From sequence record DRR723986_4803: a stretch of 20,000 nt of DNA. One strand, written 5' to 3'. Of the stretch, positions 4,433-13,011 are shown piece after piece (positions within the stretch are counted from its first letter, which is position 1; each line of letters begins with the position of its first letter). The translations under genes were made by a program, and so were the position numbers. The notes under the pieces were generated by a model. The model saw only the letters and a list, made by a program, of their open reading frames with translations, searched no databases and was not told the origin of the DNA.

Positions 4433-5371
4433 GTGAATCACCGACTTGGAATTTGCACGCCACTATCTACCGCAATTTTGCTTGCTGGTTATGTCGTTCT
4501 TTCGGCAGGGACGCAAGTAACGGCTCAGGAAGAAAGTGTTGTTCTCCCTGGGGCGGAACTGGAATTGGTCGCCGATGGTTACAAGTTTACAGAAGGCCCT
4601 GCGGTCGATTCACAGGGCGTCGTGTACTTTACCGACCAACCCAATGATCGCATCCTCCGCTGCGACCTCGATGGCAACGTGACGACGTGGATGCAGCCTG
4701 CCGGGCGAAGCAACGGATTGTTTTTTGCGCCCGATGGTCAGTTGATTGCCTGTGCCGACGGCAACAACGAACTCTGGTCCATTGATCCGAAATCCAAGAA
4801 GCAAACTGTCTTGCTCAGCGGCTTCGAAGACAAGCGTTTCAATGGTCCAAATGACGCGTGGGTAAACAGCGACGGCACCATTTACTTTACGGATCCCTAC
4901 TACAAGCGACCGTATTGGAAGCACGAAGACGATGCCCCCAAGTTGCCGAGGCAGGTCTACCGATATTCACCTCGTGCAAAATCGGTAGTTGTTGCGGCAT
5001 CGGATTTCAAGCAACCCAACGGAATCGTTGGAGATGCCGAATCGGGATTGATCTATGTCGCCGACATCGGTGACAAGAAGACGTATCGGTTCAAGCTTTC
5101 GGAGGCGGGTAATCTGGAGGACCGGAAGCTGTTCTGCAAAATGGGCTCCGACGGGATGACTTTGGACAGCGAAGGGAATTTGTATCTTACGGGTAAGGGC
5201 GTGACCGTTTTCAACTCTGGCGGGAAGCAGATTGGACAAATCGATGTTCCCGAGGGCTGGACAGCGAATGTCTGCATCGGAGGTCCGCAGGCCGATTTCT
5301 TGTACATTACAGCCAGCGATTCGCTTTACCGAATTCGTTTGAAGAATTCGGCTGTGGGCGTAGGGAAGTAG
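4433..5371 (+). CDS. SMP-30/gluconolactonase/LRE family beta-propeller protein, secreted
   Basis: Signal-peptide-like N-terminus ending VTA-QEE. Motifs FTEGP, YFTD, RSNGL, FNGPND, QPNGI, GSDGMTLDSEGNLY, WTANVCIGG, LYITAS. RBS AGGAG at 4419-4423. Confidence 0.9.
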   Translation: MNHRLGICTPLSTAILLAGYVVLSAGTQVTAQEESVVLPGAELELVADGYKFTEGPAVDSQGVVYFTDQPNDRILRCDLDGNVTTWMQPAGRSNGLFFAPDGQLIACADGNNELWSIDPKSKKQTVLLSGFEDKRFNGPNDAWVNSDGTIYFTDPYYKRPYWKHEDDAPKLPRQVYRYSPRAKSVVVAASDFKQPNGIVGDAESGLIYVADIGDKKTYRFKLSEAGNLEDRKLFCKMGSDGMTLDSEGNLYLTGKGVTVFNSGGKQIGQIDVPEGWTANVCIGGPQADFLYITASDSLYRIRLKNSAVGVGK

Positions 5372-6492: not shown

Positions 6493-7503
6493 CTACTTCG
6501 AAAGTTGTTGCATGACTTCTTGAACGACCTTTTCGATGAAATCGTCTTTCGGCGATGCGCCGTCTGTTGATTCTGAAGAAGGATCGATGTCGGGCAACCA
6601 TTGTCCGAGCTCGCTGAGGATCTGAGCAAGCTGTTCTTGGGTTTCCTGCGCACTTCGCTGTTGATCTGCTGACAGAGGTTGGCGGCTCTTACCAAGGTCC
6701 CATCCACGGGCAAGTGCGCCGCGACGGAAGCCTTCGGGGAACTCAGGCTGACCAATCATCGCATCGAACAATGGGAGTAACCGGTATTGGAACTGCATCG
6801 CCCGATCCCATTGGCCCCGATTGCACGCTTCAAAGATGGCTCGCGTCAATTCAGGCACAACACCGCTGGTCGCATTCGTCCCTCCGTTGCAACCGATCAT
6901 GATCATCGGCGCAAGCGCGGCGTCCCAGCCGGTTAGAAACGAGAACTCCGGACGTTGCGGGCGAACGGCAGCTATCATCCGCATCATGTGCGGGATGTCA
7001 CCTGAGCTGTCTTTAATGCCAACAACTCTGGGGCAATCCAGGGCAAGGCGGCGGACGGTTGCTACTTCAATTGGTGACGCGAACAGCGGAATATTGTAAA
7101 GCGTTACATCGACGCTAACCTCGTCAGCGATATCCTTAAAGTACTGATAGACGGCTTCCTGACTCAGCTTGTAGTAGAAGGGTGCCACGATCGCCACAGC
7201 TCGCACGCCCAATTGTCCATAGGCTTCGCAGGCTTCTATCGTCTCGCGGACATTCGCTTCCGCCGCGCCAGCCAGAATTGGCACGCGGTCGCCGACGTGA
7301 TTGCTGAGGACTTCGATAATCCGCCGACGCTCTCCAGCGGTAAACCGAGTGAATTCGCCCGTCGAGCCGTTGGGGTAAAGGCCGTGGACACCTTTTTCGA
7401 TTAACCAATCCACGTAACCACACAGTTTGTCCTCGTCGACTCGACCCCGGGCGTCAATTGGAGTAATGTTCGGCGTGTAGATGCCTTCCATGGGGTGCGA
7501 CAT
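6493..7503 (-). CDS. DHDPS/N-acetylneuraminate lyase family class I aldolase (probably a 2-keto-3-deoxy sugar-acid aldolase, not DapA) with a C-terminal extension
   Basis: [21 protein letters not shown], catalytic Tyr in LYNIP, Schiff-base Lys in [13 protein letters not shown]. The ATG at 7503 (MSHPMEG) fits the family N-terminus better than 7554. Confidence 0.88.
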
Positions 7504-7766
7504 GGTGTGGTTTCCCGGATGCGTATCGTTTGAGCGGCTGCAATGGGCCGCCAAGCGAGAGGATTCTCGTAGTTTCGTTGTCCATAGTTTACATTACATT
7601 TTTCATCGGTCTGAGCGGCTTTTCAACTTCACGTGATTGCGGCGTGAAGCAAGTGGGGATGAACCGGCCGCTGCCGCAGAAGTTGTAGGCACCGTCTTGC
7701 AGGCTTCTAGCCTTTACTTTCATTCAAAATTCGACCGATAGAACGGCTCAGAAATCGGGGCAAGCA

Positions 7767-10061
7767 TTGTCAGCTCTTTTTGCCAAGCGGTGGATTGTTA
7801 TTGCCTTAGTCGGGTTGGCATTTCTTGCCAGTTGGCTGCCGTACTTGTCGCAACCGTCTAGCAAGGCGTTTGATGAAGATGGCAGTCCACACTCTCGGCT
7901 CGTTGAGTTGATGGTGATGCCGAATCTGGCTCAGCAGTTCTACGCGCTCCAGGTCAATGGTGCCCCGGAAGCGATCATTGACAAGATTCCGTTGTTTGCC
8001 GCCGCAGCGGCCTGGTTATGTCTGGCATTTGTCGTTGGCCGACCTCTGGTAGCTGCGAGTCGGTTGCCCTTTTCGAGTGCCGAGTTCCGTGGACTCTCGG
8101 TTCTCTTTGGTCTGACCATATTCTCAACCCTGACGCTCTTGGTCGGTTTGGCCGGTCTGCTTGGCTCACGTTGGCCGCTGACGCTGTGCGTCGCTGGGCT
8201 GACGGCTGTTGCGTACTTTTCATGGCTGAAAATCAGGGCGGCCAGCGATGGAAGCACTTGCAAAGTAGACGCTGACAAGGGAACTACGCCGACCAAAGGC
8301 CGCAAAGGAGCTGCCGCTAATCGAGTGTCCGTCCAAGAGCAAATCGTTCCACAAGAAGCGATGACGGTCTGGGCGACACGGCTAACTCAGTTGCTCATCG
8401 TTGTTTTGGCGTTTTCCTACCTTCAGTTTGGAGCTATCGCACCGAGTGAGTTCGATGTGCTTGAATACCACTTGGGGGCACCGAAGGAATTTCACCGCGC
8501 CGGGCAAGTGTTTTTCACGCCCAACAGTGTTTACGCGAATATGCCCTTGGGCATTGAGATGCACTCGCTGGCCGCGATGACACTGGTCAGCGGCTCTTCG
8601 GGGTGGTGGTGGGGTGCAATGATTGGAAAAGTCGTCGTGGCTACGTTCTCATTGCTCGGTGCTTATATCATTTACGGCTATGTCGGCAGGAAGTATGGAA
8701 CTCCGACAAATTGGTTCGCGGCAGGATTGTACCTGGCGATAGGCGGCAATATTTACTCGTCAACGACGGGGCTGGTCGACTACGCGCTGGGCGTCTACGT
8801 GCTCGCTGCCGTGGTGGTCTTGGAGAAACTGACAACGCTTGAAACAGACGATCGGGAAAGTGCGCCGGGCCGCGTTTGGTTTGCCAGAGTGTTCCTGCTC
8901 GGATGCTTTTCTTTTGGTGCGATGGCATGTAAATATACGGGGCTTGTGTTCTGCGCCGTTCCGGTAGGCTGCTGCGTGGCTTACTTCCTTGTCCGCAAAC
9001 GCCTCCCCTGCCCTATTCCGACGCTTGTGGCTGCCTCCATGGTTGCGGCATTGGTAACCGCAGTCCCATGGTTGGCGAAAAACTTCATTGCAAGCGGCAA
9101 TCCTGTGTTTCCCCTGGCTAGTGGGCTCTTTGGCGGCCTCGATGCGGGTGTGGCCGAGCGGTGGGCTGGCGCTCATACGCCGGGTGGAGGCGAGGGGTTC
9201 GGCTTATTGCAACTGGTTGCATCCTGCAAGCGGTTTCTATTCGGGGCGCAGTACCAGTTACCAAGCATTGTTTTTTGCGTGCTGGGAGCAGTGGTGATTA
9301 GTTGTTGGCCGAAAAGTGCGGCAGCCAGCGTGCAGTCCGCGACTCCCGAGAATAGACGCCCCGAAGATTCTTCGTCGAACTTGCCGTTGTTTTTTACCGT
9401 GGCGGGAGCCATCCTGGCAGTTTGGTGGATTGCCACGCATCGGTTGGATCGGTTTTGGTTCCCGGCGATGCCTCTGCTGGCGATCGTGGCAGCCAGATTT
9501 CTTCACTGGGTGCGCATGCAAGTGGCTGCCGGCTTGGCAGTAGCGATCGTCTTGCCCAGCGTGTTGTTTGGGCTGATGCTCATCTTTTCGGGAAGTGCCC
9601 CCAACGATGCGCGGTGGTTGGTTCCCCAACGCGAGTTCTATCAAAGCCTGACTGAGCCCACGGAGCGGTCGAGCTTTGGTGACACGGTGGCCTGGTGTAA
9701 TAGTCAGTTCGGAGATGGTGATGGTAAAGTTGCCCTGGTCGGCCAGGCTGCAATTTTCCCTTTCACGATTTCGTACTCTTATGCTACTTGCTTCAATGAA
9801 CCTCCCGTGAAGCGACTGGTGCAGGAGCAGGGGCCGCAGCAGCAGTTGGCGGCATTGAAGGCTGAGGGGATTTCGCACATCGTGATTGACTGGGCCGAAA
9901 TCGCCAGATACCGCTCGCCTGGGAATTACGGTTTCGATTCTTGGCCGCAGAGGTCGGATATCGACAAGCTGATCCAAAGTGGCGTGGCTAAGGAGATGGA
10001 GACTCCATTTGCAACGAAAAGCTTCCAGGTCTTGGAGGTCGCAGAGTCGTCCAGTGAATAG
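7767..10061 (+). CDS. Polytopic GT-C fold glycosyltransferase (ArnT/PMT-like) membrane protein
   Basis: 764 aa with more than 12 hydrophobic segments. Motifs EFDVLEYHLGAPKEF, VYANMP, ACKYTG, PWLAKNFIASGNPVFP, DRFWFP, plus a C-terminal soluble domain. The TTG start is uncertain. Confidence 0.7.
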   Translation: MSALFAKRWIVIALVGLAFLASWLPYLSQPSSKAFDEDGSPHSRLVELMVMPNLAQQFYALQVNGAPEAIIDKIPLFAAAAAWLCLAFVVGRPLVAASRLPFSSAEFRGLSVLFGLTIFSTLTLLVGLAGLLGSRWPLTLCVAGLTAVAYFSWLKIRAASDGSTCKVDADKGTTPTKGRKGAAANRVSVQEQIVPQEAMTVWATRLTQLLIVVLAFSYLQFGAIAPSEFDVLEYHLGAPKEFHRAGQVFFTPNSVYANMPLGIEMHSLAAMTLVSGSSGWWWGAMIGKVVVATFSLLGAYIIYGYVGRKYGTPTNWFAAGLYLAIGGNIYSSTTGLVDYALGVYVLAAVVVLEKLTTLETDDRESAPGRVWFARVFLLGCFSFGAMACKYTGLVFCAVPVGCCVAYFLVRKRLPCPIPTLVAASMVAALVTAVPWLAKNFIASGNPVFPLASGLFGGLDAGVAERWAGAHTPGGGEGFGLLQLVASCKRFLFGAQYQLPSIVFCVLGAVVISCWPKSAAASVQSATPENRRPEDSSSNLPLFFTVAGAILAVWWIATHRLDRFWFPAMPLLAIVAARFLHWVRMQVAAGLAVAIVLPSVLFGLMLIFSGSAPNDARWLVPQREFYQSLTEPTERSSFGDTVAWCNSQFGDGDGKVALVGQAAIFPFTISYSYATCFNEPPVKRLVQEQGPQQQLAALKAEGISHIVIDWAEIARYRSPGNYGFDSWPQRSDIDKLIQSGVAKEMETPFATKSFQVLEVAESSSE

Positions 10062-10619: not shown

Positions 10620-10807
10620 CTATTTCGTTTTCCGTGTAACTCTGCCGAAGTTTGCGGCCGCGTTTCATTTCGCCGCTTTGTCGACGAATGAAGCTCGCGT
10701 GGCTATACTCCCGACTGCGACTTCCCTTTCTTGGGACGTCGCAACGTGCCAAGAGCAAGACGTGCAAAGAGCAGTTCGACAAATCGCGTTATCGTACACG
10801 ACACCCC

Positions 10808-11521
10808 ATGAGCAACACTCTTCTTTTTGTCGTGCCTGTGTTCGCCTACATTGTCGGCACTATGTTTGCTGGGCGATTTGAAGACGACGGCTACGCGATC
10901 GCTTACGCTGTCGTTGTTACGCTGGTCGCAATCGTTACCTGTGTCTTGGCTGTCCGCGCGAAGAAGGAGCGTGAGGCAGAGAGGCAGGAGAAGGCTTCTC
11001 TACTGCCGTTTCGAATGCATCCTTTCGTTCTTGAGGGGATTGTTGCAGGCGTAGTGGGGATTGCACTTTGGATATGGATTAGTGATTTACAGCTCGAGAG
11101 GGCGATCGCAGCGTATCTGCCGAGCTTCATGCAGCCTGGAGAACGCGTTGCTTACAACCCGTTTGAGACACTCAGCCCAAACATAGCGTGGGTGTTTATT
11201 GGGTTTCGGATCTTCGGTATCGGAGTTGTTGTGCCGGTTGTCGAAGAGCTATTTTGGCGAGGCTTCTTGCTGCGTTGGTTGATCGATCCCGATTGGGAGA
11301 AACTGCCTTTGGGCAAGTTTACGTTGCAGTCCTTTAGCGTCGTCGTCCTGCTATTTACTGTTGCTCATCCGGAGTGGTTTGCGGCGGCCCTCTGGTGTGC
11401 GCTCATCAACGGGTTGCTGTACTGGAAGCGGGATCTGTGGCAGTGCATCGTCGCCCATTCCGTTTCAAACTTGCTGCTTGTCGCCTACGTCCTGGTCTAC
11501 GACCAGTGGTATCTTTGGTAA
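10808..11521 (+). CDS. CAAX prenyl protease-related (CPBP/Abi) intramembrane glutamic metalloprotease
   Basis: VPVVEELFWRGFLLR (EExxxR), LFTVAHPEW (FxxxH), IVAHSVSNLLL (HxxxN), multiple TM segments. The ATG at 10808 (MSNTLLF) is preferred to the 10652 extension. Confidence 0.9.
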   Translation: MSNTLLFVVPVFAYIVGTMFAGRFEDDGYAIAYAVVVTLVAIVTCVLAVRAKKEREAERQEKASLLPFRMHPFVLEGIVAGVVGIALWIWISDLQLERAIAAYLPSFMQPGERVAYNPFETLSPNIAWVFIGFRIFGIGVVVPVVEELFWRGFLLRWLIDPDWEKLPLGKFTLQSFSVVVLLFTVAHPEWFAAALWCALINGLLYWKRDLWQCIVAHSVSNLLLVAYVLVYDQWYLW

Positions 11522-11571
11522 ATTGTGCCTCGCGAGGTTACGAAACGCTGTTCCAGTTCAGAGGATTCATG

Positions 11572-13011
11572 ATGAGTATCGAACTGCACGATTCAACAAA
11601 CTGTAAAGTCCGTCGAGGCTTCAACCTCTTCGCGGCAGGACTGGCGTTGTTGCTCCTCAGCCCAACAGTCGTGCTTGGCCAAGCAGATGGGCAAGGTGAT
11701 GATGGGCAGGGCGAATCATTGTCAGCGTCAGATGCCAAAGAGCGGCGTCCCAATTTGATTTACATCATGGCGGACGATCTTGGGTATGGCGACTTGGGGT
11801 GCTTCGGGCAGGATAGAATTGACACCCCCAATATCGATTCGCTTGCTCGAAACGGGATGAAGCTGACAAGCTACTACGCTCCGTGTACTGTTTGTCGCCC
11901 TTCACGTTTGGCCCTTTGGACTGGGCAGCACATGGGGCATACTCCGATCGATTCAAACGCCAAGTATATCTTCAAGCCCGAAGACGTTACGGTTGCAGAA
12001 CTGCTGCGAGAAGCCGGATACGCGACTGGGGGAGTTGGGAAGTGGGCCATGGGAGGGCCGGACACTCCAGGAAATCCGAACGCGAACGGGTTCGATTTCT
12101 GGATGGGTTATCTCGACCAGAGCGAAGCTCATAATTACTATCCGACGCATCTGTGGCTGAACAATAAACGCGTGGATTTGCCGGGGAACGTCATCGGAGA
12201 TTATCCGAACGGACGAGGGCGAGTTGCGGAGAAACGCGAGACGTACTCCCACGACGTTATGACTGGAGCCGCGTTCGATTTCATTCGTGAGAATCGGGAC
12301 AAGCCGTTCCTGATGCACATACATTGGACAATTCCCCACGCCAACAATGAAGGTGGGCGGGTAACTGGCAATGGGATGGAGGTGCCGACTTACGGAACGT
12401 ATGCCAATCGCGATTGGCCGGATACCGAAAAAGGGCAGGCGGCAATGATTTCTCGGATGGATGGAAGTGTTGGTCGGTTGGTCGGATTGCTGAACGAATT
12501 GGGGCTCAGCAAAGATACACTTATCATTTTCACCAGCGACAATGGTCCGCATAGTGAAGGCGGGCACAAACATGAGTTCTTCGACTCCAATGGGCCACTC
12601 CGCGGATACAAGCGAGATCTATACGAAGGTGGAATTCGCGCGCCGACGATTGCGTGGTGGCCGGGCACAATCGAAGCTGGTGCCGAGAGTGATCAGCCGC
12701 TGGCGGGATACGACTGGATGGCTACGGCGTGTGAGTTGGCTGGCTGTGAACCAGCAGAGGACACGGATGGCATTTCCTTTGTTCCAACTTTACTTGGTCA
12801 GAGTCAACGCCCTCACGATTATTTGTACTTTAGCTTCGGTGAAAAGAAGGCGGTTCGCAAAGGCAACTGGAAGGCGGTCCGTTTGGCCAAAGACAAGCCC
12901 CTTGAACTCTACGACTTAGACACAGACATTGGTGAACAGACAGACCTTGCTGGCTCAAACGCTGATTTGGTCGCCGAATTCGAAGCGATCATCAGTGACG
13001 CATCCAATTAG
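11572..13011 (+). CDS. Cys-type (formylglycine-dependent) sulfatase, family S1, exported
   Basis: RPNLIYIMADDLGYGD, CxPxR as CRPSR (11893-11907), GYATGGVGKW, FTSDNG, LRGYKRDLYEGGIR, ELYDLDTDIGE. RBS GAGGA at 11561-11565 precedes ATGATG. N-terminal signal peptide. Confidence 0.95.
   Translation: MSIELHDSTNCKVRRGFNLFAAGLALLLLSPTVVLGQADGQGDDGQGESLSASDAKERRPNLIYIMADDLGYGDLGCFGQDRIDTPNIDSLARNGMKLTSYYAPCTVCRPSRLALWTGQHMGHTPIDSNAKYIFKPEDVTVAELLREAGYATGGVGKWAMGGPDTPGNPNANGFDFWMGYLDQSEAHNYYPTHLWLNNKRVDLPGNVIGDYPNGRGRVAEKRETYSHDVMTGAAFDFIRENRDKPFLMHIHWTIPHANNEGGRVTGNGMEVPTYGTYANRDWPDTEKGQAAMISRMDGSVGRLVGLLNELGLSKDTLIIFTSDNGPHSEGGHKHEFFDSNGPLRGYKRDLYEGGIRAPTIAWWPGTIEAGAESDQPLAGYDWMATACELAGCEPAEDTDGISFVPTLLGQSQRPHDYLYFSFGEKKAVRKGNWKAVRLAKDKPLELYDLDTDIGEQTDLAGSNADLVAEFEAIISDASN

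Follow-up and report, generated by a model that had tools for sequence, protein, structure and literature searches.

The aldolase gene and its C-terminal extension

The 20,000-nucleotide stretch of DNA considered in this study (sequence record DRR723986_4803, hereafter the window) carries a gene for an aldolase of the dihydrodipicolinate synthase (DHDPS)/NAL family, in which the catalytic barrel is followed by a linker and by a terminal amphipathic helix (Table 1). An earlier note, made from the letters of the window, had compared this tail with the encapsulation peptides (EPs) of bacterial microcompartments (BMCs) and had proposed the enzyme as a candidate microcompartment cargo. The open reading frame (ORF) enclosing the gene (6493..7554, minus strand) would encode 353 amino acids (aa) if read from a TTG codon, and 336 aa from the ATG at 7503; the latter is the most likely start of the aldolase, since the orthologs begin there too. 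PF00701 is the only Pfam family matched by the protein (203 bits against a cut-off of 22.1; E value, 5.6e-60), with residues 5 to 293 aligned on positions 2 to 287 of the 289 of the profile, and PF00596, the family of the class II aldolases, gave no match. Residues K164, Y136, and T48 are invariant in the 41 rows of the alignment and align with the matching motifs of the solved DHDPS chains; catalysis through a Schiff base in this family uses the Lys, Tyr, and Thr residues. On this sequence evidence, the enzyme is a DHDPS/NAL-family class I (Schiff-base lysine) aldolase of the pyruvate-dependent type, as the earlier note had recognized.

The tail had been described as a 16-aa Pro/Ser/Asp-rich stretch (6547-6594) followed by a 17-aa terminal segment (6496-6546), and both the residues and the coordinates are correct; the linker delimited by our structural model is the same stretch, drawn slightly narrower. 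This AlphaFold2 model, built from the 41-row alignment, has a mean pLDDT of 91.9 and features, at the end of the protein, a helix (279 to 305), a coil (306 to 317), and a second helix (318 to 335). The pLDDT is between 50 and 66 in the linker coil, falling below 50 at residues 312 to 317, and about 80 in the block of the terminal helix, the hydrophobic face of which is formed by F322, I323, V326, V327, V330, M331, and L334. Over the 320 17-mers of the aldolase, the helical hydrophobic moment peaks in the terminal one (0.56), a value reached by only 9 of 5,000 shuffles of its own residues. Furthermore, among 38 orthologs the mean frequency of the commonest residue falls from 0.80 in the barrel to 0.25 in the linker and rises again to 0.54 in the terminal helix, the length of the linker ranges from 7 to 32 aa, and V327, V330, and L334 each occur in at least 90% of the 41 alignment rows. 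The terminal helix is, in other words, conserved behind a non-conserved linker, beyond what is expected by chance. The tail displays the features by which EPs are recognized, namely, a terminal position, a predicted amphipathic helix of about 15 to 20 aa, and a poorly conserved linker.

Conservation of the tail among orthologs

Scanning a single genome of each species yielded 140 pattern matches, 111 of them being relatives; the best 80 of these 111 were used, all of which come from Pirellulaceae-type planctomycetes, and a variable linker with a conserved terminal helix was found at the end of the protein in 80 of 80. When 401 genomes sampled evenly from the phylum (phylum sample) were searched, the matches were bimodal: 24 genomes contain an ortholog (E value of at most 1e-118 and at least 56% identity), and the next matches are paralogs with about 30% identity. 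In all 23 orthologs beyond that of the closest relative, a linker leads to a terminal helix that follows the same pattern but ends differently at the C terminus, and six of the paralogs with about 30% identity stop after the barrel, with no tail.

In a second sample of 301 genomes of the family (family sample), the ortholog occurs in 250. At an E value of at most 0.005, a profile of the aldolase tail matched only 150 of the 301 genomes, fewer than the 250 in which the ortholog occurs; the profile is not sensitive enough to score absence, and the tails were therefore read directly. This census covers the 150 ortholog matches listed, with 103 further matches lying outside it. As many as 106 of the 150 rows align through residue 331 or beyond. 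Direct reading of 40 of the remaining 44 gave 38 with a tail, one cut by the end of its contig, and one (genome G549) without a tail; as for the other four, G195 and G654 have the tail, G502 lacks it, and G569 lies at a contig edge. An in-frame TAG reported for G657 is simply its normal stop codon.

The PVM locus in related genomes

A tblastn search of the 20 kb of the window with 11 proteins of the planctomycete-verrucomicrobial microcompartment (PVM) locus of the closest relative returned no homolog, the only match being one of 9 aa with an E value of 0.91, in agreement with the absence of shell genes stated in the earlier note. The shell genes that the note had suggested looking for were detected in relatives: BMC-H genes occur in the closest relative, with its 94% identical ortholog, and in four other relatives, so that this evidence comes from the genomes of relatives and not from the window's own genome. 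In the closest relative, the canonical PVM locus encodes a DeoR protein, a PduL-type phosphotransacylase, two BMC-H proteins, AckA, three BMC-P proteins, an aldehyde dehydrogenase (AldDH), a protein of 231 aa, a class II aldolase, and an LDH-like dehydrogenase. The phosphotransacylase, the AldDH, and the 231-aa protein start with amphipathic peptides. The class II aldolase, which in the PVM loci of relatives is a separate gene of the PF00596 family, ends in a long linker and a helix, and its last residues, V-M-Q-Q-L, are the same as in the class I aldolase. It is the PF00596 type of enzyme, active on L-fuculose/L-rhamnulose 1-phosphate, that has been described as the signature enzyme of the PVM microcompartment; the aldolase of the window is not of this type.

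Some further features of these loci could be noticed. A conserved protein of about 225 to 250 aa (hereafter, the 230-aa protein; Table 1) is encoded between the BMC-P genes; it matches no Pfam family and has a strong EP-like N-terminal helix. One of its homologs gave a weak sub-threshold match to TIGR02536, a hypothetical ethanolamine-utilization family (23 bits, where the cut-off is 152.6; E value, 3.9e-5). A second shell locus lies far from the main PVM locus (G001:C112:10249-10848, with equivalents in G002 to G005), where two BMC domains occur in a single frame of 219 to 316 aa; this frame probably encodes a shell protein of the tandem-domain (BMC-T) type, and the locus is probably a true satellite shell locus. 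Sulfatases flank the PVM locus of the closest relative.

Likeness of the tail to the encapsulation peptides of the PVM locus

The PVM-locus EPs and the aldolase tails were compared across eleven genomes. A profile was built from 13 N-terminal EPs belonging exclusively to PVM-locus proteins of seven genomes and was searched, in six frames, in five other whole genomes. In all five, the aldolase tail was the best match outside the PVM locus (tied in one case), and the ranks above it were taken only by PVM-locus EPs in every genome. In particular, the tail ranked first in G005 (E value, 2.6e-5), second in G004 (1.6e-5) and in G003 (0.018), third in G002 (0.68), and fourth, tied, in G375 (0.33).

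The reverse profile, built from 38 aldolase tails and searched in six frames of whole genomes, gave 36 matches at an E value of at most 10 in five genomes, five of which are the aldolase tails themselves. Among the other 31 matches, four are N-terminal EPs of the PVM locus, i.e., that of the AldDH, which was the best (E value, 0.011), and those of three copies of the 230-aa protein; two further matches that were read out sit inside doubtful ORFs. Over the 301 genomes of the family sample, seven genomes had further matches, at a distance of about 4 kb from BMC-H genes, and the four of these that were read out correspond to the N terminus of the 230-aa protein, the protein in which the aldolase tail finds its closest sequence matches. 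One such protein shares the motif F-[VI]-E-R-I-V-R-E-V-M with the aldolase tails of the window clade, the two being near-identical over ten residues. Judging from these sequence comparisons, the tail shares its motif type with the N-terminal peptides of the AldDH, the phosphotransacylase, and the 230-aa protein and with the C-terminal peptide of the class II aldolase. The likeness to the peptides of the PVM AldDH and aldolase, which the earlier note had suggested checking, is supported by the reciprocal profiles and by the V-M-Q-Q-L end held in common with the class II aldolase.

Co-occurrence of the ortholog, the tail, and the shell genes

In the phylum sample, BMC-H genes are present in 24 of the 24 genomes with an ortholog, compared to 142 of the 401 genomes overall. 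In the family sample, 244 genomes have both the ortholog and BMC-H, 6 have the ortholog only, 19 have BMC-H only, and 32 have neither; the Fisher test on this table gives a P value of 6e-24, which overstates the evidence because it ignores relatedness and assembly gaps. Among the genomes with an ortholog where BMC-H was not found, G420 and G481 contain BMC-P genes on short contigs and G701 contains a PVM aldolase at a contig end, so these three are shell-positive genomes with fragmented assemblies.

A different picture emerged for G502, in which neither BMC-H nor BMC-P was found. The ortholog there, at 65% identity, stops directly behind the barrel and is nested, on a long branch, among tail-bearing sequences; the class II aldolase of this genome shares 60% identity with that of the PVM locus, has no EP extension, and lies in a non-BMC context. 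This genome looks like a case of natural loss of the organelle with de-tagging of the cargo. Likewise, G697 has a basal ortholog (49% identical) with no tail, and BMC-H, BMC-P, and PVM aldolase genes were not found there.

Family identity of the aldolase

The best structural match found by Foldseek is the sugar-acid aldolase YagE (2v8z; E value, 8.5e-26; TM scores, 0.81/0.91). At least 500 PDB matches were obtained at an E value of at most 0.001, and all those among the matches listed are members of the family; the solved members listed are 290 to 310 aa long, too short for the tail. Sequence comparison by phmmer gave an E value of about 1e-39 with YagE/YjhH-type relatives. The YagE/YjhH-type 2-keto-3-deoxy sugar acid aldolases and the archaeal 2-keto-3-deoxygluconate aldolases have the fold and the catalytic residues in common with the aldolase of the window; the identity, about 29 to 32%, allows no assignment to a characterized subfamily, and the known members found are tail-less, with 290 to 310 aa. 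None of the NCBIfam equivalogs reaches its cut-off, the sub-threshold matches being spread over several branches, including the KdgD and HpaI-like models.

In the public annotation, the orthologs appear as "dihydrodipicolinate synthase family protein" or, wrongly, as DapA. DapA belongs to the same Pfam family, but the aldolase is set apart from it by score, by a key arginine, and by the existence of separate DapA candidates in relatives. The score with TIGR00674 (165.5 bits) is lower than the cut-off of 206.15. Behind their Y-N-[IV]-P motif, the solved DHDPS chains carry an arginine that binds aspartate semialdehyde; the aldolase has no arginine aligned with it, P-L-F-A standing in the place of P-G-R-S. 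F141 of the aldolase is nearly invariant among the orthologs. In five of five genomes of relatives, another locus is stronger on PF00701, with 299 to 313 bits versus 202 to 211. We could also notice that a different, tail-less DHDPS paralog adjoins an enolase-superfamily (MR_MLE) dehydratase in G002 (C1:6807449-6810450) and G003 (C23:39228-40554), an arrangement typical of cytosolic sugar-acid dehydratases and their aldolases. Enolase-superfamily matches number 5 to 11 in each of the five genomes tested and do not discriminate among substrates.

Gene neighborhood in the window and in relatives

The conserved neighbors of the aldolase gene in 81 loci are a divergent membrane protein, a ComEA-like HHH protein, UvrB, ExbB, and similar proteins. 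The divergent multi-pass membrane protein, of 764 to 793 aa, occurs in 48 of the 81 loci and matches no Pfam family, with a weak match to the LIC_10190 family of NCBIfam. No sugar-acid genes are present among the ORFs clustered within 7 kb of the aldolase in the 81 loci, and the gene context of these loci gives no support to the deoxy-sugar-acid chemistry proposed for the enzyme. On the basis of its sequence, the SMP-30/gluconolactonase-like protein of the window may be an exported lactonase, and no conservation of its linkage with the aldolase gene was seen. The sulfatase domain begins at residue 126 of the listed ORF, and the true start of the sulfatase is therefore probably later.

A 13-nucleotide A/T-rich word, G-T-A-A-T-G-T-A-A-A-C-T-A, lies upstream of the aldolase gene both in the window (within positions 7590-7625, minus strand) and in the closest relative (L001). 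It may be a promoter element; a search for it in the relative's PVM locus found no copy.

Table 1. Coordinates of the features of the window and of related loci (positions refer to the window unless a locus is named)
Feature	Position	Strand	Remarks
Aldolase gene	6493..7503	-	336 aa; C-terminally extended class I aldolase of the DHDPS/NAL family; likely start ATG 7501-7503; stop codon 6493-6495
PF00701 (beta/alpha)8 barrel	6625..7491	-	Residues 5-293; pLDDT >90 over most of the barrel
Lys164 codon	7012..7014	-	Motif G-I-K-D-S-S-G; invariant, in alignment with the family's Schiff-base lysine
Last helix of the catalytic domain	6589..6669	-	Residues 279-305; moderately conserved
Pro/Ser/Asp-rich linker	6553..6588	-	Residues 306-317 (model)
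Terminal amphipathic helix, candidate EP	6496..6552	-	Residues 318-336; AlphaFold2 helix 318-335
Multi-pass membrane protein	7767-10061	+	764 aa; divergent from the aldolase gene
SMP-30/gluconolactonase-like protein (PF08450)	4433-5371	+	Signal-peptide-like hydrophobic N terminus; two genes from the aldolase
CAAX-protease-like membrane protein	10652-11521	+	Listed ORF overlaps that of the sulfatase by about 150 nucleotides
Sulfatase	11374-13011	+	
230-aa protein of the PVM locus, closest relative	L089:13509-14204		
Homologs of the 230-aa protein	L137:7826-8515; L138:6459-7133; L197:5923-6642; L199:6150-6902		
Aldolases of G502	L193:9979-10815; L141		Class II and DHDPS-family aldolases, both without C-terminal extension

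Interpretation of the tail and alternative explanations

The simplest interpretation of these data is that the tail is an EP and that the aldolase is a PVM microcompartment cargo encoded away from the shell genes, since the tail outmatches the rest of the genome outside the PVM locus on the EP profile, is confined to the ortholog group of shell-bearing genomes, and is gone where the shell and the class II aldolase peptide have also been lost (G502). Resting as it does on sequence comparison, this interpretation appears to us fairly probable.

Several observations weigh against it. Three of the five E values of the EP profile are weak (0.018 to 0.68), and the argument therefore rests on the consistency of the ranks and not on the score. 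The statistics of co-occurrence are inflated by shared ancestry, both traits being near-universal in the family, and the 32 double-negative genomes may represent only a few clades; moreover, the 19 shell-positive genomes without the ortholog imply that the enzyme is not needed for the organelle. G654, which is sister to a shell-positive genome, keeps the tail, and BMC-H, BMC-P, PVM aldolase, and AldDH genes were not found in its fragmented assembly. The ortholog of G549 is tail-less, with no remnant in any frame, yet the PVM locus of this genome is intact, with an AldDH at 73% and a class II aldolase at 75% identity, the latter bearing its tail; the link between tail and shell is therefore not absolute. 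As G502 and G549 are both nested among tail-bearing sequences in a tree of the barrel region, two secondary losses of the tail have to be assumed, one with loss of the shell and one without. The neighbors of the aldolase gene in the 81 loci are housekeeping or unrelated genes, and the gene does not lie in a main or satellite BMC locus. Its upstream region and the PVM locus, compared in G001 and G002, share only words of 10 to 12 nucleotides at chance level. In addition, the EP of the PVM aldolase is itself a bioinformatic assignment in the account of it given in PMC4594438. Finally, the terminal helix of our model, with its pLDDT of about 80, could pack on the barrel or on the tetramer interface. 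The candidacy as cargo put forward by the earlier note thus stands as far as an EP-like tag on an unlinked cargo is suggested by the comparative evidence (reciprocal profiles, co-occurrence, and two genomes in which the tail is missing and no shell genes were found), although G549 breaks a strict link; in the same way, a distribution of the tail that follows the microcompartment, which the note had suggested testing, agrees with G502 and G697, where neither tail nor shell genes were found, and does not agree with G549 or, as far as shell genes were found, with G654.

These points bear on the alternatives to a different extent. The C-terminal helix might be an intrinsic part of the enzyme, such as a lid, a tetramer clasp, or an allosteric element, unrelated to any microcompartment, and its likeness to EPs might reflect the limited alphabet of amphipathic helices; the confidence with which the helix is predicted, the loss of the tail in G549 despite an intact PVM locus, and its retention in G654 would all be consistent with this. 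However, a linker conserved neither in sequence nor in length points to a tether and not to a fixed structural element, and it would not be expected for an intrinsic helix that the tail is the best match to the PVM-locus EP profile outside the locus in five of five genomes, that the paralogs lack it and the solved relatives are too short for it, or that G502 is without the tail, the shell, and the EP of the class II aldolase together; we regard this explanation as distinctly improbable. Membrane-targeting helices occur in some cytoskeletal ATPases, and one could imagine that the helix directs the aldolase to the membrane or to another assembly, maybe tied to the large multi-pass membrane protein that is its divergent neighbor in more than half of the loci. 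Membrane-anchor helices are typically cationic, whereas the helix of the window clade is acidic to neutral; its sequence resembles specifically the PVM cargo peptides, and its distribution tracks the shell genes, all of which makes a membrane target very improbable indeed.

A further alternative accepts the tail as a true EP and concerns what the enzyme does: it could catalyze a KdgD-like dehydratase/decarboxylase step, or serve mainly in the assembly of the core, without feeding any aldehyde to the organelle. The spread of sub-threshold NCBIfam matches over branches that include KdgD and HpaI-like models is compatible with it, as are the other DHDPS paralogs beside enolase-superfamily dehydratases, which could serve the cytosolic sugar-acid routes. 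The catalytic Lys, Tyr, and Thr are invariant, however, and the nearest solved structure is that of a sugar-acid aldolase; furthermore, the signature enzymes of metabolosomes generate aldehydes, according to PMC4207490. We consider this alternative rather unlikely, if less so than the two preceding ones.

Relation to known systems

An EP at the C terminus of the PVM class II aldolase has been described by Aussignargues et al. (2015, PMC4594438), and the same 2015 review states that other carriers of EPs were not known. As outlined there, and like the tail of the class I aldolase, it is a C-terminal helix, about 17 aa long, in which hydrophobic residues alternate with hydrophilic ones, placed after a non-conserved linker, which is reported to be 23 to 81 aa long versus 7 to 32 aa in the class I enzyme (PMC4594438). 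The last five residues of the two tails are the same in the closest relative, and both tails are lost in G502. Different from the class II aldolase, the class I carrier belongs to another fold family, and its gene is not in or near a BMC locus. The N-terminal EPs found on core enzymes of metabolosomes (AldDH and PduL-type phosphotransacylase) display the same motif type as the class I tail, as judged by the reciprocal profile searches.

Like the aldolase gene, the BMC satellite loci are BMC related and distal to the main locus; the aldolase gene, however, stands alone as a candidate cargo gene, and the 20-kb window contains no shell gene. In the catalogue of Sutter et al. (2021, PMC8217296), satellite loci are defined by the presence of shell-protein genes, and a shell-centered survey would therefore miss a lone aldolase gene. 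In our full-text literature searches, the scope of which excludes the primary PVM paper (Erbilgin 2014) and supplements, no description of a DHDPS-family enzyme as BMC cargo or EP carrier was found, in line with the earlier note, which was aware of no such description. PF00701 and DHDPS are likewise unmentioned in the main texts of the 2014 BMC taxonomy and of the 2021 catalogue. The targeting device and the organelle are already known, and what appears to be new is the carrier family and the unlinked gene.

Proposed role in the PVM microcompartment

If the tail is an EP, a DHDPS/NAL aldolase would have acquired, at its C terminus, a flexible linker and an amphipathic helix of about 17 aa, and the helix would recruit the enzyme during the assembly of the PVM microcompartment, through binding to shell proteins and/or co-aggregation with the tagged cargo. 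Recruitment through shell hexamers and/or cargo co-aggregation is the general model as set out by Aussignargues et al. (2015, PMC4594438). Inside the organelle, as the family would suggest, the aldolase might split a 2-keto-3-deoxy acid by retro-aldol cleavage to give pyruvate and an aldehyde, the latter of which could then be processed by the resident CoA-acylating AldDH, the phosphotransacylase, the acetate kinase, and the LDH-like reductase. Candidate substrates are 2-keto-3-deoxy-L-fuconate or -rhamnonate, which would yield L-lactaldehyde, and the 2-keto-3-deoxy-pentonates, which would yield glycolaldehyde. LRA4, the L-2-keto-3-deoxyrhamnonate aldolase of the non-phosphorylative L-rhamnose route, belongs to the DHDPS family and yields pyruvate and L-lactaldehyde; to our knowledge, it is cytosolic and has no known targeting tail. 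This is the chemistry that the earlier note had proposed; such a route from a 6-deoxy-sugar acid to lactaldehyde is plausible and would fit the known aldehyde of the organelle. The aldolase would in this way be a second aldehyde-generating entry enzyme of the microcompartment, encoded by a lone gene far from the shell genes.

It is possible to hypothesize, as a tentative picture that we would place somewhat below even chances, that the PVM organelle of the Pirellulaceae has two unrelated aldehyde-generating enzymes, a class II aldolase for phosphorylated deoxy-ketoses and a class I aldolase for non-phosphorylated 2-keto-3-deoxy sugar acids, the latter recruited by a peptide of the locus type, possibly copied from a cargo of the locus, and encoded and perhaps regulated independently.

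The functions of BMCs are now inferred from the genes clustered with shell genes, a method that a lone cargo gene escapes. If the aldolase is indeed a cargo, the list of BMC cargo would not be readable from the locus alone, and a profile made from the locus EPs of a genome itself could find unlinked cargo genome-wide, which would provide a simple and testable recipe. [quoted passage not shown]

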